Notes under the pieces: model-generated
The model's database searches: none
What the model saw: only the letters and a program-made list of their open reading frames with translations
Told to the model about the DNA's origin: nothing
Position numbers and translations under genes: made by a program
Shown: piece by piece, positions 190 to 18,425 of the stretch
How the letters are laid out: every line of letters begins with the position of its first letter
Position numbering within the stretch: position 1 is the first letter of the stretch
From: a virus
Direction: 5' to 3' (one strand)
Length of the DNA: 18,425 nucleotides
Virus record (IMG/VR): IMGVR_UViG_3300045163_000016

Positions 190-1794
190 TCAGCCCTCGC
201 CGCCGCCGGCGGCAGCGGTGGTGACCGGCACGATCGCGGTCGGGAACGGGACGATCACGGCCTGGTAGCCGTACAGCGAGAACTGCTTGGTCAGGTTGAT
301 GATGTTCTCGTCCTGCAGCTGCAGCGGGGCGTTCGCGTTCTTCAGCGTCTTGAGCGCCGAGGAGTCGTAGAACGCCGCGGTGCCGGCGGGGGCCTCGCCG
401 TACAGGCACTTCACGTTGATGGACGCGAGGTTGCCGTTGCCCTCGGGGAGGGACAGCGTGCCGGAGAACTCGTCACCGGCCTGGACCTTGAGCGCGGGCA
501 CCTCGTTGTAGGTGAGGCGCTGCAGGGCCTTGAACTGGTCGGTGGAGACGACCAGGCCCTCGAGGCTGAACCCGTTGTCGGCGTAGCGCTGGCCGGCGTC
601 CACGATCACGTCGCGCCAGTCCCAGACGGTCGCGGCGGCCGGCAGCTCGATGCCGTTCGCGGCCTGGCCGTCGATGACCTCGAGGATGCGCTCCCGGAAG
701 TCGGCGTTGGTCGCCTTGATGTAGGCGAGCGCGAGGGCCTTCATCACGGTGTCGAGGTACGGGATCTCGCTGCGCTCGATGACCTGGCGGGTCAGCTCGG
801 TCCAGCCGCCGAACGTCTCGATCGGCTCGCTCTTGGACACGAGCTTGACCTTGCCGGGGCCGGGGAGGTCCTCGCCCTCGCCGGGCTGCTTGCCGGCCAC
901 CAGGGTGTTCTCGGTGAGCTGCGCGTAGTCGGCGTTCATGCCGGTCGAGGGAAGCGCGCCGGTCTCGAACGTGTTGATGAGCTGCCGGCGGTCCTCGACC
1001 CACTTGATGAACGTGCCGAGGAACGACTCGTTCTTGATCGAGCCCTCGGTGGTCTGGCCGGCGGTGGCGCGGTGGAACTCGAGCGCGGCCTCGTCGCCCG
1101 ACGCGACCTTCTTGAGGTAGTCGCCGATGGAGCGGAACTGCGGCTCGACCGGGGCGGTGCGGGCCAGGGTGGTGTCGATGCCGGCGATCTGGCGCTCGAG
1201 GTCCTGCATGGACTCCTCGAGCGGGCCGAGGTCGGCGCGGGTCAGGGTGGTGTCGGACATGGCGGGGTCTCCCTCGGTGGTGCGGTCAGTGGGGGCGGTG
1301 CGGTGGCGGACCTTGGTCACGGTCGCCGAGCTGTAGGCGGGGAAGGGCACGAGCGAGAACTCGCTCGCGCGGACCTTGGTGTGGACGACGGTCTCGGTGC
1401 CGTCGTCGGCGACCTCGATCCGGTACTCCTCGGGCCGAAACCCGATCGACAGGCGGCTGATCACGCCGTCGCGGAGCAGGGTCGCGGCCTCGCGGCCACG
1501 CTCGGTGTCGGAGAGCGTGCCCTCGACCTCGTACCCGGCGTCGGTGTCGCGGCCGGCGGTGATCTTCCCGATCGGCTCGTCGTGGCGCCACAGCACGAGG
1601 GACGGCACGCCGTCGGGGTCGCGCTCGACGGAGCCGGGCTCGAACCGCTCGCGGATGCCCCAGAGGTCGATCGTCTCGCCGTAGGGCACGCCGATGCCGG
1701 TGAACGAACGGCCGGCGTCGTCCTGCGCGCGGATCTGCACGTCCAGCTGCCGGTCGCTGGTGATGGTGTCTCGGGTGAGCGTCGTCTCGGTCAT
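190..1794 (-). CDS. Fused prohead (HK97 family, S78-type) protease - major capsid protein, 534 aa
   Basis: The N-terminal ~165 aa carry prohead-protease motifs (LVLWRHDEPIGK, RLSIGF, EFSLVPFPAY). The C-terminal ~355 aa resemble an HK97-fold MCP with a coiled-coil delta-like leader (LEESMQDLERQIAGID; TFGGWTELTRQVIERS). No stop codon separates the two parts. The start forms an ATGA overlap with the portal stop. Confidence 0.8.
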   Translation of the reverse strand: MTETTLTRDTITSDRQLDVQIRAQDDAGRSFTGIGVPYGETIDLWGIRERFEPGSVERDPDGVPSLVLWRHDEPIGKITAGRDTDAGYEVEGTLSDTERGREAATLLRDGVISRLSIGFRPEEYRIEVADDGTETVVHTKVRASEFSLVPFPAYSSATVTKVRHRTAPTDRTTEGDPAMSDTTLTRADLGPLEESMQDLERQIAGIDTTLARTAPVEPQFRSIGDYLKKVASGDEAALEFHRATAGQTTEGSIKNESFLGTFIKWVEDRRQLINTFETGALPSTGMNADYAQLTENTLVAGKQPGEGEDLPGPGKVKLVSKSEPIETFGGWTELTRQVIERSEIPYLDTVMKALALAYIKATNADFRERILEVIDGQAANGIELPAAATVWDWRDVIVDAGQRYADNGFSLEGLVVSTDQFKALQRLTYNEVPALKVQAGDEFSGTLSLPEGNGNLASINVKCLYGEAPAGTAAFYDSSALKTLKNANAPLQLQDENIINLTKQFSLYGYQAVIVPFPTAIVPVTTAAAGGGEG

Positions 1795-4898: not shown

Positions 4899-5134
4899 GA
4901 TCCGGTCCTTCCCGGCCCAATCGGGCCTGACCTGCGGTTTTTCTGGGCTGATCGGGGGGGATTTCCAAGGTTGGCGCGGGTTGGAAGCGGCCCCCCGCTC
5001 AGAAGAACGGCCGAGCCGAGGGCGCGGTCGCTCGGCGGCGCGGCGGCGAGGGCGTCGAGGTGCTCGGCGGTCGTCACCTCGCCGTCGTCGGGCTCATCGC
5101 TCGCGTCGAGAGCTCGCGAAGTAGTTGAGTCCAT
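4895..5134 (-). CDS. Possible small acidic/basic protein (79 aa) overlapping the HNH 3' end; doubtful
   Basis: ATG at 5134 is preceded by AAGGAGAG 8 nt upstream, and the stop forms an ATGA overlap with the TerS start. GC3 is high in the first ~45 codons but drops in the last ~30, which coincide with hairpin/cos-like sequence. Confidence 0.3.
   Translation of the reverse strand: MDSTTSRALDASDEPDDGEVTTAEHLDALAAAPPSDRALGSAVLLSGGPLPTRANLGNPPRSAQKNRRSGPIGPGRTGS
4899..5093. other. Candidate cos / packaging-initiation region between HNH and TerS
   Basis: In HNH-dependent cos phages the HNH gene is the last gene and terS the first, so cos falls between them. The region is locally atypical: GGTTTTTC, a G7 run (4953-4959), a C6 run (4991-4996), and a nested inverted repeat CGGGGGG..TTCCAA-12 nt-TTGGAA..CCCCCCG. 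Confidence 0.3.
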
Positions 5135-5384
5135 TGTGGATCTCTCCTTCTGGTCCATCAGCATCACGATCTTGGAGCTGGTAGTTGCAGCTCTTGTGTG
5201 CTGGTCGTTCGTTCGCTGCTGTCCGCTGTCCGCCTCGCTTGCGTGAGGTCACGTGCTGCAGCGACTCCTGCCCTGGTGCGATGCCGAGCCCACAGATGCA
5301 GCACACCCAGCCGTGCACGGCGAGGGCCTGGTCGAGCAGGGCCCGGCGCTGGTCCCCCGACAGGCGGGTGTAGTCATCGGCCAC
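5094..5384 (-). CDS. HNH endonuclease (packaging-associated), 96 aa from GTG 5384; the longest ORF extends to 5459
   Basis: HNH signature: CCICG...SLQHVTSRKRGG...N...PAHKSCN. GTG at 5384 has GAGGGGG 5 nt upstream. The longer start would overlap the upstream HTH gene by 86 nt. Confidence 0.75.
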   Translation of the reverse strand: MADDYTRLSGDQRRALLDQALAVHGWVCCICGLGIAPGQESLQHVTSRKRGGQRTAANERPAHKSCNYQLQDRDADGPEGEIHNGLNYFASSRRER

Positions 5385-5640
5385 GGGTACCCCCTCGAGC
5401 AGGGGTGCCCCCCTCCCTCGCGGGGGTGCCCCGCTTGCGTGAGGGGGTGCCCTGCTCACGGGCCAGCATCCACGCCTGCACGCGGGCGGGGTGGTAGCGG
5501 ACAGTGCGACCGAACAGCAGGTGCGGCGGGCCGTCGCCCGACACGCGCCAGCGCTTGATCGTGCGGTCCGTGACGCCGAGCAGCTCGGCCAGCTCCTCGG
5601 TCGTCATCAGGCGGGCGGGCCTGCTCGGCGTCGCGGTCAT
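5374..5640 (-). CDS. Excisionase-family (MerR-like, HTH_17-type) DNA-binding protein, 88 aa, with a basic repetitive C-terminal tail
   Basis: MTTEELAELLGVTDRTIKRWRVSGDGPP..GRTVRYHPARVQAW matches the excisionase-type winged HTH pattern. The start forms an ATGA overlap with the upstream stop. The tail GTPSRKRGTPAREGGTPARGG is encoded by the 21-bp repeats. Confidence 0.7.
   Translation of the reverse strand: MTATPSRPARLMTTEELAELLGVTDRTIKRWRVSGDGPPHLLFGRTVRYHPARVQAWMLAREQGTPSRKRGTPAREGGTPARGGTRGR
5385..5452. repeat. Three GGGGTGCCC direct repeats phased at exactly 21 bp (5402, 5423, 5444) plus a degenerate palindromic copy GGGTACCC (5385)
   Basis: Read directly from the sequence. They lie at the HTH-gene 3' end / HNH 5' end. 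Confidence 0.8.
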
Positions 5641-5959: not shown

Positions 5960-6417
5960 CGCTGCTGCCCGTCGATGATCCACGCGGCGACCTTGACGGC
6001 GAGTAGGGAGCCAGCGTGCGGGAACAGCTTGTGCGCGAGCTCGAGCGCCCACGCGCGGTCGAGCTGCGCCCGCTCGGTCGGGTCGTCGCGGTCGCGGTGC
6101 TCGTCCACGTCCTCGGGGCTGTCGGCCTCGGGCACCTCGCGGTCGATGAGTGCTGCGGTCACGCCGCCCTCGGCGTAGTCGGGCCGGAGGGTGTCTGCCA
6201 CGAAGTCGGGCGCGGTCTCGCGGAGGTAGGCGCGCATCGCGTCGGGGTCGCTGCGGTCGATCATGGCGAGCAGCTCGGCGGTAGGGATCGACACGGGGCC
6301 GGTCCGGTGTCCATCGCGCTGGGCGACGGTGTGGAGGATCGTGCTGTTGGCGAAGGCGGTGAGTCGGAGGGCGGTCCCGGCGGCGTTGTCGGCGTAGGCC
6401 TGAGTCTCATCATTCAT
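5956..6417 (-). CDS. Hypothetical acidic early protein, 153 aa
   Basis: ATG at 6417 has AGGAGA 7 nt upstream. The start overlaps the upstream zinc-ribbon gene by 8 nt (ATGAATGA). The 321-aa version in the ORF track is rejected (see noticed_but_rejected). Confidence 0.65.
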   Translation of the reverse strand: MNDETQAYADNAAGTALRLTAFANSTILHTVAQRDGHRTGPVSIPTAELLAMIDRSDPDAMRAYLRETAPDFVADTLRPDYAEGGVTAALIDREVPEADSPEDVDEHRDRDDPTERAQLDRAWALELAHKLFPHAGSLLAVKVAAWIIDGQQR

Positions 6418-6616
6418 CGGGTGTCTCCTGGTGCTGGTGGTGGAGTAGGGCGCGGATCTCGGCGAGAGCGGCCTCGCGGGCGAGGGCGATGCGACCGCCC
6501 TGGTCGAACAGCGAGCAGCGGGGGTTGCAGCAGATCGCGTCGCGGTTCTGTCGTCGTCCACAGGCAGGGCAGGCGGTGAGCGGTGCGGCGCTGGTGATGC
6601 GGGTCTGATGCGGCAT
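6410..6616 (-). CDS. Small zinc-ribbon-like protein, 68 aa (CPAC...CCNPRC)
   Basis: ATG at 6616 has AGGAGG 7 nt upstream. High GC3. Two Cys pairs have zinc-ribbon spacing. Confidence 0.65.
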   Translation of the reverse strand: MPHQTRITSAAPLTACPACGRRQNRDAICCNPRCSLFDQGGRIALAREAALAEIRALLHHQHQETPDE

Positions 6617-7191
6617 GTCGTGTCCTCCTGTCTGTGATCGGTGTTGGTGGTCGGTGTCTCGGGTGGTTCAGGTGGGCGTCCCCGGCTGGTGGGGGCGGCT
6701 GCGCCCTGGTGGGCCGGTGCCGTGGTGGTGGTTGCGTGGGTAGTGGTGTTGGAGGGGTGATCTGCCTGTTCTCTTGTGGTGCTGCTGGTGGGGGCTGGTG
6801 GCCCCGCACCTTGGGAGGGAGTGAAGGGAGTGAGTGGAGGGAGAGTGGTCCCCCCGTGGTTCGGGGAGGACCACTGCACCTCGGTCGGTCGTTCGGTCGA
6901 TCGCCTCGGTCGGTAGGTCACCTACGGGGATTAGTCGCTGGTCAGGGCCGGGATGTTGAGCAGGTCGTGGGAGGGGTGCTGGTGATCGTCCGGGCCTGCC
7001 TTGACCGATCGCGCCTACTCATCGGAGCCGGAGCACTGAATGAGGGGGTCCGTCACCCCTGAGCCCTTGTGCAGTCGGCTCGTGCGCGTCCCGGTGTCTC
7101 GCCCTGGGCAGTCGCCCCGCTCAGCGCGCGGGGATGCGATGGAGTTGTCAGCAGGCCCGTCACGGGGGGTCGTGGGCGCGTGAGGGGGCGG
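6617..7191. other. 575-bp apparently non-coding tract inside the early operon, with extreme strand skew
   Basis: No convincing ORF. All three minus frames are open only because the minus strand almost lacks T (5 A on the plus strand in 6641-6810). The tract also contains repeats, a palindrome and hairpins (see findings). Confidence 0.55.
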
Positions 7192-7533: not shown

Positions 7534-7982
7534 CGGGTCACCCCGTGGCGCTCGAGCGCGGCGCGGAGCTGCAGCACCTCGACGCGGCGCTGTGCGGCGC
7601 CGGGCTGTCGGCGGGCCACGGCCTTCTCGAGCACGCGGGCGCGCTTGTCGAGCAGGTCGAGCACGGCGTCGGCGTGGATGCGGTCGCACGGGGCCGGCGC
7701 GGGGCGGCGGTGCGGGGAGACGGGCTCGCCGGTCCGCTTGCTCTCGCGGTACATGCGGTTCTGCTCGGCTCGGGCGGCGCGGCAGTCCTCGCACCGGCAC
7801 CCTCGGGCGTAGCGGGCCGTGGTGCCGTGCTCGGGGGCGGGGCGGGGCTCGCGGGCGGGACGGGGCCGCGCGGCGCGGCGGGTGGCCGCGGCGGCGGCGT
7901 GAGCGGCGCGGCAGTCCTTGCACCGGCACCCGTGGTACCTGTAGCCGGACTGCGTGCCGTGCGTCATGGTGCGGGCGGTCAT
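7530..7982 (-). CDS. Hypothetical protein, 150 aa, with two HGTxxxYxxGCRCxDCRAA repeats (putative metal/DNA-binding)
   Basis: High GC3 in this frame, whereas the competing frame is Arg/Pro junk. ATGA overlaps at both ends. The duplicated motif is encoded by a 29-nt near-identical DNA repeat. Confidence 0.65.
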   Translation of the reverse strand: MTARTMTHGTQSGYRYHGCRCKDCRAAHAAAAATRRAARPRPAREPRPAPEHGTTARYARGCRCEDCRAARAEQNRMYRESKRTGEPVSPHRRPAPAPCDRIHADAVLDLLDKRARVLEKAVARRQPGAAQRRVEVLQLRAALERHGVTR

Positions 7983-8089
7983 CGCTCGCGCCCGTCGCGG
8001 GAGAGCACGGCGAGGCCGACCACGGCCCCGACGACGCTGCCGAGGATCATCGCGGCGCTGAGGATCGTCTCGAGCTCGTGCGCGCTCAT
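7979..8089 (-). CDS. Micro-ORF: 36-aa single-TM peptide (MSAHELETILSAAMILGSVVGAVVGLAVLSRDGRER)
   Basis: Not in the ORF track. ATGA overlaps with both neighbours (8086-8089 and 7979-7982). High GC3 and a hydrophobic core. Confidence 0.55.
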   Translation of the reverse strand: MSAHELETILSAAMILGSVVGAVVGLAVLSRDGRER

Positions 8090-8292
8090 CGCTGCGCCTC
8101 GGCGGTGCGCTCGGCGGCGAGGGCCTCGATCTGCTCGGCGTCGAACAGATACGCGCCGTTGCGGCCGGGGAGCTGCCCGATCGGCACCAGCTTGCCGTTG
8201 TCTACCCGCTGGCGGACCGTCGAGCGGGCGATCCCGAGCAGCTCGGCGACCTCGGTGGTCGTGATCGGGCGAACCGTAGTGTGCATGGGCAC
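8086..8292 (-). CDS. Cro-position, excisionase-family HTH DNA-binding protein, 68 aa (66 aa if ATG 8286 is used)
   Basis: ITTTEVAELLGIARSTVRQRVDNGKLVPIGQLPGRNGAYLFDAEQIE matches the excisionase/MerR-like HTH pattern. It is the first gene of the long minus-strand operon and is divergent from the repressor. Confidence 0.7.
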   Translation of the reverse strand: MPMHTTVRPITTTEVAELLGIARSTVRQRVDNGKLVPIGQLPGRNGAYLFDAEQIEALAAERTAEAQR

Positions 8293-8293
8293 A

Positions 8294-8323
8294 CTTCTAC
8301 AGTAAGGGTGCTCACGCCGTCAA
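8294..8323 (-). promoter_or_regulatory. Candidate early (lytic) promoter: -35 TTGACG (8323-8318), 18-nt spacer, -10 TAGAAG (8299-8294); would give a leaderless mRNA at ATG 8286
   Basis: Hexamers read on the minus strand. There is no good SD upstream of the start, and the -10 ends 7 nt before the ATG. Confidence 0.3.
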
Positions 8324-8356
8324 GTGTTCACACGCACACAATGGTGTCTGCACCTG

Positions 8357-8383
8357 TTGCGTAGGGGGCGTGCGACCTAGAGT
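8357..8383 (+). promoter_or_regulatory. Candidate repressor promoter: -10 TAGAGT (8378-8383) ends 6 nt before ATG 8390 (leaderless); weak -35 TTGCGT (8357-8362, 15-nt spacer)
   Basis: A TAnnnT hexamer lies at leaderless distance and no SD is present. The -35 is poor. Confidence 0.3.
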
Positions 8384-8389
8384 GGGCAC

Positions 8390-8767
8390 ATGAGCATTAG
8401 TTACCAGCCGGGAACTGTCCCGTCCTTCACGGTGGCCGACCGTCTGCGCAAGGCGCGCGAGGTCACCGGCATGGACCAGGCCGAGTTTGCCGAGCACGCC
8501 GGCCTGTCGCGCACCGGCGTGAGCAAGGCCGAGCGGGGCGAGAGCACGCCGCGCCGCTCGACGCTCAAGCTTTGGGCGCTCGCGTCGGGCGTGCCGCTGT
8601 ACTGGATTGAAACGGGAGTAGCCCCGTCACCGACTGGTGACGGGGCTACTGATGGGGTGCGCCCGGAGGGATTCGAACCCCCAACCTTCTGGTTCGGAGC
8701 AACGGGCGCACGACCTGCGGCGACGGTGATTCCGATGCGGTCACGGCCCGAGCCGGCGGCGGCGTGA
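8390..8767 (+). CDS. XRE/Cro-CI-type immunity repressor, viral (full-length) form, 125 aa, with attP embedded in its 3' third
   Basis: The HTH is ADRLRKAREVTGMDQAEFAEHAGLSRTGVSKAERGESTPRRSTLKLWALASGVPLYWI. Codons 90-104 (VRPEGFEPPTFWFG) are the antisense translation of a tRNA T-arm and anticodon arm. The protein ends in PAAA. Confidence 0.8.
   Translation: MSISYQPGTVPSFTVADRLRKAREVTGMDQAEFAEHAGLSRTGVSKAERGESTPRRSTLKLWALASGVPLYWIETGVAPSPTGDGATDGVRPEGFEPPTFWFGATGARPAATVIPMRSRPEPAAA
8617..8650 (-). terminator. Perfect 15-bp stem / 4-nt loop hairpin just 3' of the tRNA-like segment; possible terminator for the tRNA reconstituted after integration
   Basis: AGTAGCCCCGTCACC-GACT-GGTGACGGGGCTACT. 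On the minus strand it is followed by CCCGTTTCAAT, a weak U tract. It lies inside the repressor coding sequence. Confidence 0.4.
8658..8700 (-). other. attP common core: 3' portion of a tRNA-Arg(CCG) gene, from anticodon loop to discriminator base (not a complete tRNA)
   Basis: The minus strand reads G-CTCCGAA-CCAGA-AGGTT-GGGGG-TTCGAAT-CCCTC-CGGGCGC-A. That is an anticodon loop with CCG, the 3' anticodon stem, a variable loop, a T-arm with the canonical TTCGAAT loop, and the 3' acceptor strand. The D-arm and the 5' anticodon stem are absent. Confidence 0.7.
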
Positions 8768-8784
8768 TCCGGTAGGGACGTGTC

Positions 8785-9612
8785 ATGGCACACATGAGTG
8801 AATCTTGGACGACGGCAGTGGACGACTGGATCGGGAGCATGACGGCGGCGGGCGTGCCGGCGACGACTCAGCGGACCCGGCGCGAGCACATGCAGCGCTG
8901 CGCGAGGGTGGGCGGCTGGTCATCGCCCGCACTCGTGACCGGCGAGGGGCTCGTGAGGTGGTTCTCCCGGCAGTCCTGGGCACCGGAGACCCGCCGCTCG
9001 CACCGAGGCTCGCACCGGGCGTTCTGGGGCTGGTGGGTCACCACGGGGCGCGGCGAGGTGAACCCGGCCGAGGCGCTCCCACGGGTCAAGGCGACCGCCG
9101 GCATCCCGCGCCCGGTCGATGAGCTCTCCTACCGGGCCGCGCTGCGCGACGCCGCCCCGCGGGTGCGGCTCATCCTGCGCTGCGCCGCCGAAGTCGGGCT
9201 GCGCCGCGCGGAGATCGCCCAGATCCACCGCCGGGACCTCCTGCAGGATCTCGGCGGCTGGTCGCTGATCGTGCACGGCAAGGGTGGCAAGCCTCGCGTC
9301 GTGCCGCTGCCGGGAGGGCTCGCGGCCGAGGTCGCCGAGCAGTGCCAGCGATGGGGGTACATGCTGCCGGGAGACGACGCCGGCCACCTGTCACCGCGCT
9401 ACGTCGGGAAGCTCGCCGCGCGCGCCCTGCCGGACGACTGGACGTTGCACGGGCTGCGGCATCGCTTCGCCACGCGGGCGTACAGCCTCGATCGGGACGT
9501 GTTCACGGTGCAGCAGCTCCTCGGGCACGCCTCGCCCGCGACCACGCGCCGCTACGTCGCGCTCGACACGTCCGGGATGCGCTCGACGGTCGATCGGATC
9601 GCTGCGGCCTAG
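8785..9612 (+). CDS. int: Tyrosine integrase (small, XerC/D-like, no obvious arm-binding domain), 275 aa
   Basis: Catalytic signature GLRRAE...HGKGGKPRVVPLP...HGLRHRFATRAY...LLGHASPATTRRY (R, H-x-x-R, H, Y). Starts 17 nt after the repressor stop. The C-terminus is DRIAAA. Confidence 0.9.
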   Translation: MAHMSESWTTAVDDWIGSMTAAGVPATTQRTRREHMQRCARVGGWSSPALVTGEGLVRWFSRQSWAPETRRSHRGSHRAFWGWWVTTGRGEVNPAEALPRVKATAGIPRPVDELSYRAALRDAAPRVRLILRCAAEVGLRRAEIAQIHRRDLLQDLGGWSLIVHGKGGKPRVVPLPGGLAAEVAEQCQRWGYMLPGDDAGHLSPRYVGKLAARALPDDWTLHGLRHRFATRAYSLDRDVFTVQQLLGHASPATTRRYVALDTSGMRSTVDRIAAA

Positions 9613-9851
9613 TCCTCGTCGCTCTTGGTGGGCACGTTCGCCGAGGCGAGGCCGAGCCCGCCGGTCGCGAGGATCGTCCCGGCGAGGGACAGCCACAGGG
9701 CGACCTCGCTGTCGGTCACGATGCCGTAGGAGACGAGCAGCGGCGCCGACGCGCCGAGCACGCCGTAGACGTACAGGCGGGCCTTCGGGGAGCGGATGAC
9801 GCGGCCGAGGTTGATCTCGGCGGGGCCGGGCTTGCGGTACTTGCCGTTCAT
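9609..9851 (-). CDS. Holin, 80 aa, two TM helices
   Basis: Internal ATG at 9851 forms an ATGA overlap with the upstream stop. TM1 is LYVYGVLGASAPLLVSYGIV and TM2 is ALWLSLAGTILATGGLGLA, followed by a charged C-terminus. It is the last gene of the lysis cassette and resembles 2-TM actinophage holins. Confidence 0.65.
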   Translation of the reverse strand: MNGKYRKPGPAEINLGRVIRSPKARLYVYGVLGASAPLLVSYGIVTDSEVALWLSLAGTILATGGLGLASANVPTKSDED

Positions 9852-18141: not shown

Positions 18142-18425
18142 GCGAGCCCCGGGCCGAGGTAGGGGCGAAGCATCGGCCACGCCGGCGTCATGGGGTCGAG
18201 CGCGGGCCTCATCGGGTTGCCCATCGTCTCGGGGTCGGCGTAGTTCGCCGTCCCGATCGAGGACACGCGCCGCTGGTAGAGGTTCGCGCCGACCTCGAGG
18301 ATCGCGGCCGAGAGCACCGACTCGGGCACGGACGCGGCGCCCACCTTGTCGGAGACGAGCTGCGCGGCGCGCGCCTTGCTGTCATCGACGAAGGGGGCAT
18401 CGCGCTCGCTCGCTCGCACGTACCC
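18138..18425 (-). CDS. Head-to-tail connector (gp6-like), C-terminal part of the junction-spanning gene (see 1..184)
   Basis: Same reading frame as 1..184 once the 127-bp overlap is collapsed. The M at 18419 in the ORF track is an internal GTG (Val22). Confidence 0.6.
   Translation of the reverse strand, partial: GYVRASERDAPFVDDSKARAAQLVSDKVGAASVPESVLSAAILEVGANLYQRRVSSIGTANYADPETMGNPMRPALDPMTPAWPMLRPYLGPGLA
18299..18425. repeat. Right copy of the 127-bp terminal direct repeat
   Basis: Identical to 1-127. Confidence 0.95.

Follow-up and report, generated by a model that had tools for sequence, protein, structure and literature searches.

Integration-dependent immunity has been described in mycobacteriophages of Clusters G, I, N and P, and, among Gordonia Int-Y phages whose phage attachment site (attP) has been identified, it is reported in roughly half (PMC5559632). 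For the Cluster G phage BPs, two forms of the repressor have been published, gp33(103) and gp33(136) (PMC4557955), and both tag-dependent degradation and dependence on the integrase gene int were shown experimentally (PMC3694055, PMC9262239). Integration-dependent immunity has also been reported for Gordonia phages of Cluster CW, with attP in the repressor gene and a tRNA gene as the bacterial attachment site (attB) (PMC5559632); for the Bifidobacterium prophages Bb423phi2 and 689b-1, a full-length repressor with its tag reappears upon excision in silico (PMC6109161); and the Streptomyces Cluster BC phage Tubberson is annotated with an immunity mechanism (PMC12243558). Here, a cassette of this kind, comprising a repressor gene (rep), attP and int, was analyzed in the IMG/VR virus record IMGVR_UViG_3300045163_000016, whose 18,425 nucleotides are referred to as the window (position 1 is its first letter). 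The window is very likely the circular free form of a temperate, siphovirus-type phage of a Brachybacterium species that carries a BPs-type cassette.

The original prediction, made from the letters of the window, had placed rep at 8390-8767, int 17 nt downstream and a helix-turn-helix (HTH) gene divergent from rep, and all three are borne out by the open reading frame (ORF) list and by Pfam. The features on which the argument turns are the following.

8390-8767, plus strand: rep in its viral form, 125 aa, XRE family
8785-9612, plus strand: int, a 275-aa tyrosine integrase, 17 nt after the rep stop; matches Phage_integrase (E 9e-16)
8086-8286, minus strand: cro-position gene, coding for 66 aa when started at the ATG at 8286, as gene callers do; first gene of the leftward early operon
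8657-8691, minus strand: common core of attP, 35 bp, GTGCGCCCGGAGGGATTCGAACCCCCAACCTTCTG; codes for Rep residues 90-100, VRPEGFEPPTF
8690-8692, plus strand: junction codon, TGG (Trp101) in the phage and TGA in the prophage
8692-8764, plus strand: viral-only 3' end of rep, from the rest of codon 101 to codon 125, WFGATGARPAATVIPMRSRPEPAAA; detached by integration

The ends of the window are an exact 127-bp direct repeat (1-127 = 18299-18425), and because of this overlap the window represents a circularly assembled free form with a true genome of 18,298 bp, which is also the distance between the two att repeats of the prophage described below. The genome has a G+C content of 70.8%, and its called genes all lie on the minus strand save the adjacent plus-strand ORFs rep and int. 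Several hundred JGI contigs, of which many exceed 0.2 Mb, encode exact copies of the Int and capsid proteins, and the host proteins that flank the prophage are nearest to those of Brachybacterium spp. (82-86% identity).

Read on the opposite strand, the core corresponds to the 3' part of tRNA-Arg(ACG), covering the end of the anticodon stem, the variable loop, the T arm, the 3' strand of the acceptor stem, and the discriminator plus one base. A tRNA-like antisense segment had been proposed for 8658-8700; the resemblance is real and beyond chance, with 8657-8704 being 93.8% identical to attP in repressor gene 33 of BPs and in some 80 further phages (E 4e-9, 2.3 Gb searched), but its extent is the 35 bp of 8657-8691. 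ARAGORN called no complete tRNA in the window, as is expected because the core is a partial tRNA copy.

Integration at this core was observed directly in locus L095, part of a 527,668-bp Brachybacterium-like contig. L095 contains a single complete prophage that agrees with the window permuted at the core at every one of 18,333 bp. An identical 35-bp copy of GTGCGCCCGGAGGGATTCGAACCCCCAACCTTCTG stands at each of its ends, at a spacing of 18,298 bp. Past the core at attL the contig reads ATCCGTAGTCAG..., and ARAGORN called an intact tRNA-Arg(ACG) on the opposite strand across this junction, as it did in L005; at attR, on the int side, a host hairpin and an ArsR-family gene precede the core. Since the third base of codon 101 is the first host base beyond the core, TGG in the phage becomes TGA in the prophage, and the prophage Rep is therefore 100 aa long and ends ...VRPEGFEPPTF, without host-encoded residues. 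Rep residues 101-125 are lost, and the shortened gene (rep') runs antisense into the intact tRNA-Arg(ACG). In the prophage, int lies at the opposite end, 18.3 kb from rep', next to the host ArsR gene and away from the rep promoter region. Taken together, these data demonstrate that integration takes place into the 3' part of tRNA-Arg(ACG) and inside rep, shortening rep and rebuilding the tRNA. The original prediction was right that integration shortens rep (the natural attL and attR junctions of a 100% identical prophage at a tRNA-Arg gene give a Rep of 100 aa, compared with 125 aa in the viral form); however, it had expected host-encoded sequence to replace residues 104-125, and instead residues 101-125 are removed, translation stops after F100 and nothing is added.

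The same junction occurs in relatives. Brachybacterium tyrofermentans carries a related prophage (Rep 88% identical) with an identical tRNA site and junction, and the ...RPEGFEPPTF ending is present in annotated proteins of B. tyrofermentans, B. massiliense, Dermabacter jinjuensis, Glaciibacter psychrotolerans and Mycetocola saprophilus. Furthermore, dozens of actinobacterial prophages of 15-21 kb in IMG/VR have a truncated rep as their precise boundary. The genuine junction TGA is present in loci L004, L005 and L095; some 100-aa database proteins that resemble the prophage form (L002 and L003) are contig-end truncations without a stop, and these were rejected as evidence.

The Rep protein matches HTH_3 (E 7e-10, residues 19-73), and HTH_31 and HTH_19 as well; it also matches phrog_2328, a transcriptional repressor family, over residues 1-118 (E 5.5e-33). 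Its homologues in Mycobacterium and Gordonia phages carry the annotation "immunity repressor", and it is 45% identical to the immunity repressor of Weirdo19. AlphaFold predicted a five-helix HTH domain at residues ~11-76, with a pLDDT of 90-96 over residues 11-70, and predicted residues 77-125 to be unstructured (pLDDT below 60 from ~81 and below 50 in the viral-only tail). An unstructured tail suits a flexible extension bearing a terminal degron, and it would explain why this coding region tolerates the DNA-level constraints of the tRNA core and of a hairpin discussed below. The viral form ends ...EPAAA, an ssrA-like AAA tail, and Int ends ...DRIAAA. Rep homologues on 16-19-kb contigs are 115-151 aa long and end in AA, or in SA in one case. 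Among 31 related cassettes (non-redundant rep-int pairs from IMG/VR and other loci), a C-terminal AA was found in 21 of the 31 Reps and 19 of the 31 Ints, most others ending in A-containing dipeptides; as a crude background, 4.6% of the ORFs in these loci that reach 100 aa or more end in AA. The alignment of Int with residues 63-331 of BPs gp32 shows 49% identity (E 1e-78), and Int, at 275 aa, is too short to hold a lambda-type arm-binding domain. Because Int and Rep are homologous to their BPs counterparts, the core is identical, the proteins share the PPTF end and the junction TGA recurs, the cassette is an orthologue of that of BPs and not a mere analogue. The proposed assignment of the layout to integration-dependent immunity is supported.

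The 103 bp between the cro-position gene and rep contain candidate control elements, which were read by eye.

8287-8389, no strand: cro-rep control region, 103 bp
8323-8294, minus strand: candidate PR, with -35 TTGACG (8323-8318), an 18-nt spacer, -10 TAGAAG (8299-8294) and 7 nt to the cro ATG
8357-8383, plus strand: candidate Prep, with -10 TAGAGT (8378-8383) 6 nt before the rep ATG and a -35-like TTGCGT (8357-8362) at a short, 15-nt spacing
8279-8294, no strand: candidate operator O1, a 6-4-6 palindrome without mismatches, GTGTGC-ATGG-GCACAC, that overlaps both the start of cro and the PR +1 region
8324-8339, no strand: candidate operator O2, GTGTTC-ACAC-GCACAC, with 1 mismatch to O1, beside the candidate PR -35 and 45 bp from O1

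The geometry of TTGACG, 18 nt, hexamer, 7 nt and ATG was found again in the relatives L005 and L009, and the spacings suggest that the cro and rep transcripts may be leaderless or near-leaderless. The pattern GTGTGC-N4-GCACAC, with at most 2 mismatches, has 2 matches in the whole window, both in the cro-rep region; the count by itself is not significant (at least 2 matches in 90 of 200 shuffles), and the argument is their co-location. Relatives have other palindromes at the equivalent position, as expected for different immunity specificities.

With these elements, the following switch can be proposed, and we hold with good confidence that a BPs-type cassette with a truncation-activated repressor is the best overall explanation of the locus. 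Upon infection, the 125-aa repressor (Rep125) and Int would both be made from Prep, presumably by co-transcription, and both would be unstable, since their ssrA-like tails would target them to host proteases such as ClpXP. Where enough Int survived, integration would remove the tag from the repressor gene, and the stable 100-aa form (Rep100) would fill the operators in the cro-rep region, turn PR off and confer immunity. No dedicated excisionase would be needed, and the proposal is therefore that the level of Int would set the direction of recombination. The ssrA-like nature of the Rep and Int tails is inferred, and homology to BPs gp33 and gp32, together with the conserved AA(A) ends, suggests that the viral form is degraded and that the short form gives immunity.

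Several observations weigh against this reading. The two BPs repressor forms bind DNA alike (PMC4557955), and because of this the difference between them rests entirely on proteolysis, which cannot be proved from sequence; the AAA tag found here is unlike the textbook LAA. A scan of 7900-9700 for consensus sigma-70 promoters and terminators returned nothing, the promoters and operators given above being those read by eye. An empty attB or attR, sought as the tRNA 3' end plus the host flank, had no match in a scan of 185,579 species-representative genomes. That the phage lacks a recombination directionality factor (RDF) is not established, because two proteins of the excisionase-type HTH_17 fold are encoded. 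Finally, the full-length 125-aa rep followed by int, an attP-type junction, occurs within the large chromosomal contigs of L007 (2.1 Mb), L093 (481 kb) and L094 (a 1.4-Mb contig end), so that in some lysogens the full-length gene may belong to a tandem prophage, unless the assembly path ran through free circular phage DNA.

Two further searches for an unoccupied site were made: none was found via the host ArsR neighbour among 25 large contigs, which are lysogens or end inside the phage, and the empty attB and attL/attP junction patterns had no matches in metagenome_contigs, a collection that lacks these samples and is thus uninformative, since the attL/attP pattern is present in the JGI contigs of L004 and L007. 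With regard to the full-length gene, contigs with the attP junction (0.05 to more than 1 Mb) contain more than one phage unit and have no mismatches to a head-to-tail tandem model, and every contig for which full-length Rep is indexed (36 blocks) measures 50 kb or more. Whether these full-length copies refute truncation was considered, and this was rejected because L095 is a single, cleanly truncated prophage and the other cases have head-to-tail phage on both sides.

The strongest of the alternatives, although an unlikely one, is that the switch is not minimal and that an HTH_17 gene encodes an excisionase (RDF) with lambda-like control of directionality, in which case the label cro would be wrong or incomplete. 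Two genes come into question: the cro-position gene, whose ORF extends to a GTG at 8292 (8086-8292, 68 aa), and a second gene.

5374-5640, minus strand: second HTH_17 gene, 88 aa, directly upstream of the genes for an HNH protein (5094-5459) and the large terminase

Each of the two proteins has matches to PF12728 and phrog_66, the cro-position protein as an HTH_17 or MerR-excisionase-type HTH (PF12728, E 5.5e-10) with a match to the "excisionase and transcriptional regulator" family phrog_66 at E 2e-8, and the 88-aa protein with a phrog_66 match at E 4e-15; moreover, the cro-position protein is only weakly similar to Cro (gp34) of BPs (E 4e-4 in a two-sequence comparison). However, a small HTH gene occupies the equivalent divergent position, first in the early operon, in BPs, SallySpecial and Barebow (gene 20), and the 275-aa Int leaves no room for the arm-binding domain on which a classical excisionase acts. 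The 88-aa protein, for its part, also matches small-terminase families and is encoded upstream of the HNH and large terminase genes; it is possible that it is an RDF or a small terminase.

It is somewhat less probable still that the overlap is coincidental, an ordinary tRNA-targeting tyrosine integrase having its attP in a 3' end that a CI-like repressor gene can dispense with; truncation would then carry no regulatory meaning, and both repressor forms would be equally stable and active. The lost residues do fall in the part of Rep predicted to be unstructured (residues 77-125), outside the HTH domain, and the like DNA binding of the two BPs forms (PMC4557955) would agree with this. Nevertheless, the AA end is kept in most of the Reps and Ints compared (21/31 and 19/31) despite otherwise poorly conserved tails, a host-supplied stop directly after the core recurs with different tRNAs, and the cassette is orthologous to that of BPs, for which degradation and int dependence are experimental findings (PMC3694055, PMC9262239). 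The last alternative, that attB is a tRNA-Arg(CCG) gene with a core at 8658-8700 and that host residues replace the C-terminus of Rep, draws on the antisense of 8692-8700, which reads CTCCGAA, a plausible CCG anticodon loop, but it is highly improbable and, in the hosts observed, refuted: both in the identical prophage and in the B. tyrofermentans relative, attL has the sequence ...CCTTCTG followed directly by ATCCGTAG, a tRNA-Arg(ACG) according to ARAGORN, the phage-specific segment 8692-8700 agrees with the host tRNA at only 5 of 8 positions past the core, the 43-mer of 8658-8700 had no match in an exact scan of the 185,579 species-representative genomes, and translation stops at the junction TGA with no host residues added.

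A stretch resembling the antisense of an Arg anticodon loop lies just beyond the core both in the window (CTCCGAA, CCG, at 8692-8700) and in BPs (CTCCTAA, CCT, in L001 at ~2036-2044), and neither fits the host tRNA that is used; the resemblance may be a relic, or it may reflect a constraint on coding for F-W/C-F/L-G. Homologous rep-int cassettes with other tRNA cores were also observed, with ...LDSNQQPS/F..., ...RDSNPEPAD or ...GLEPTT... in rep, and in their prophage forms a host-supplied TAA or TGA again stands right after the core. Such loci in IMG/VR include L017, L019, L023, L025, L029, L032-L046, L059, L065 and others, and many of these cassettes are at the extreme end of 15-21-kb prophage regions in isolate genomes.

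A hairpin lies within rep beside the core, and it forms part of the phage arm that is placed next to the rebuilt tRNA.

8617-8650, no strand: GC-rich inverted repeat, perfect over 15 bp and closed by a 4-nt loop, AGTAGCCCCGTCACC GACT GGTGACGGGGCTACT

The hairpin covers rep codons 76-87, which encode an APSPxGDGA motif, lies 6 nt from the core and has a predicted stability of -32.5 kcal/mol (z -6.5). A hairpin with z below -2 was found in the attP arms of 22 of 40 related loci, compared with 3 of 40 control segments (Wilcoxon p 4e-4; the 40 loci include near-duplicates). Hairpins at the equivalent position, with differing stem sequences, are present in L005, L009, L013, L017, L021-L023, L029, L032, L042 and L059; the structure is weak in BPs (z -1.4) and absent in Weirdo19. 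Of the 156 stem cells in 13 different hairpins, 148 are paired, and measured against the window there are 1-10 double compensatory changes; these pairs were counted by script on loop-anchored arms, with the procedure fitted to each fold, the MAFFT alignment being out of register. The compensatory changes indicate that the hairpin is kept as a structure and imposed on the coding region, where it yields the recurrent "PSPxGDG"-type motif.

In the lysogen, the hairpin lies just 3' of the rebuilt tRNA-Arg, where the host hairpin stood, and the displaced native host sequence is a hairpin too (L006, z -3.9). This arrangement makes it conceivable, although we put it at somewhat below even chances, that the hairpin is a phage-supplied replacement for the tRNA-Arg terminator that is displaced to attR. 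Such a hairpin would stop read-through from the strongly transcribed tRNA in the lysogen and so insulate the immunity switch; an insulating role is suggested because the tRNA points antisense into rep' and then sense into cro and the lytic operon. No mention of a terminator or insulator hairpin of this kind was found in the accessible literature, and an Rfam scan of the window gave no match.

The truncated repressor is poorly represented in annotation. At attL of L095 (2960-3508), no coding sequence (CDS) is called for the truncated rep', presumably the source of the active repressor, that overlaps tRNA-Arg. The 100-aa Rep is on record in only 12 contigs, compared with int in 248 blocks; the truncated form is probably scarce in protein databases because no CDS is called for rep', which gene callers can easily miss since it overlaps a tRNA. 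The prophage-form repressors of integration-dependent immunity may thus be systematically under-annotated.

Elsewhere in the window, a capsid-protease fusion protein (193-1794, minus strand) combines Peptidase_S78 and a capsid domain; its nearest relatives, at ~37% identity, are in the ~17-kb Microbacterium Cluster EE phages and in an Exiguobacterium phage. Because the capsid protein is nearest to these phages and the cassette is nearest to those of Curtobacterium, Mycobacterium and Gordonia phages, the genome is a mosaic. At its 3' end, int (plus strand) converges with a holin-like gene (9609-9851, minus strand), with a 4-nt overlap at 9609-9612 and no terminator-like structure between the two. 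Between two called early genes, 575 nt (6617-7191) are without a called gene in any contig; the minus strand there has only a low-complexity Pro/Thr-rich ORF, the interval holds a few imperfect repeats, and strand asymmetry is strong at 6401-6800 (GC skew +0.33, AT skew -0.49). This interval could be an origin, another non-coding element or a missed gene.

Compared with the described systems, the locus is a well-documented new example of a known switch and not a new mechanism. The original prediction had presented it as an extension of the system to a much smaller and apparently unrelated phage type; this claim of novelty fails because the Gordonia Cluster CW phages, the Bifidobacterium prophages and others, with small genomes among them, have already been reported, and knowledge of the mechanism is unchanged by the finding.

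The closest experimentally studied system is that of BPs (Cluster G; gp32 Int, gp33 Rep, gp34 Cro; Broussard et al. 2013), in which, as in the window, cro is divergent from rep and rep is followed by int. In both, attP lies inside rep, the 35-bp core of the window being the last 35 bp of the annotated BPs attP; attB is a tRNA-Arg gene and the junction TGA arises from the first host base (PMC9262239); and both Rep and Int have a C-terminal tail. BPs gp33 and the Rep described here are 39-42% identical, and their prophage forms both end ...VRPEGFEPPTF, F103 in BPs corresponding to F100 here. The systems differ in host (Dermabacteraceae for the phage of the window, Mycobacteriaceae for BPs) and in genome size (18.3 kb and 41.9 kb). 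Int is 275 aa here and 398 aa in BPs, lacking ~55 N-terminal and ~65 C-terminal residues of gp32, and rep and int are separated by 17 nt here but overlap in BPs. The tails are AAA here, whereas KAS (Rep) and AGF (Int) are found in the BPs records; the codon that is converted to TGA specifies Trp here but Cys in BPs (PMC9262239); and the operator candidates are unrelated to the 12-bp CGACATATGTCG of BPs.

Similar in scale are the Gordonia Cluster CW phages GMA5, GRU3, Jeanie and McGonagall (Pope et al. 2017), which, like the phage of the window, are temperate and have small siphoviral genomes (17.1-17.7 kb; PMC5559632). SallySpecial (15.9 kb) encodes a repressor 56% identical to Rep over residues 8-87 and shares the cro-rep-int layout. 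The Cluster CW phages differ from the phage of the window in a tRNA-Lys attB, a 37-bp core and a Gordonia host, and no nucleotide similarity to the window was detected; rep and int are separated by more than 300 nt in SallySpecial and by an extra ORF in GMA5, compared with 17 nt here. The small Bifidobacterium prophages (Mavrich et al. 2018) also have int and the repressor gene at opposite ends (PMC6109161), although their hosts belong to another order and their sequences are different, so that they are likened by description. Microbacterium Cluster EE phages (~17 kb, e.g., Hernandez44) have the nearest structural genes, the capsid-protease match extending over 94-96% of the length; because no Microbacterium phage is among the 243 repressor-matching records, this likeness is limited to the structural genes.

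By repressor, the nearest isolated phage is the Curtobacterium phage Barebow (PQ868957, 18,292 bp), with 52% identity over residues 6-119 and the same order of a divergent HTH gene, an HTH gene (133 aa) and a tyrosine integrase gene, followed by lysis genes on the opposite strand. Barebow differs in its Microbacteriaceae host, and its genes are annotated as "helix-turn-helix DNA binding protein", without an annotated attP or immunity system, which illustrates that near relatives are on record without the system being named. No described Brachybacterium phage was found in the literature searched, and the window provides a naturally documented BPs-type case in Dermabacteraceae for which the free form, a single prophage, attL and attR are all available at 100% identity. 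Altogether, the comparison reveals that the rep-attP-int module is kept in detail, down to the 35-bp tRNA-Arg core and the junction stop, across actinobacterial families and in genomes of 18-42 kb, and conservation at this level of detail fits the idea of a compact, portable switch.

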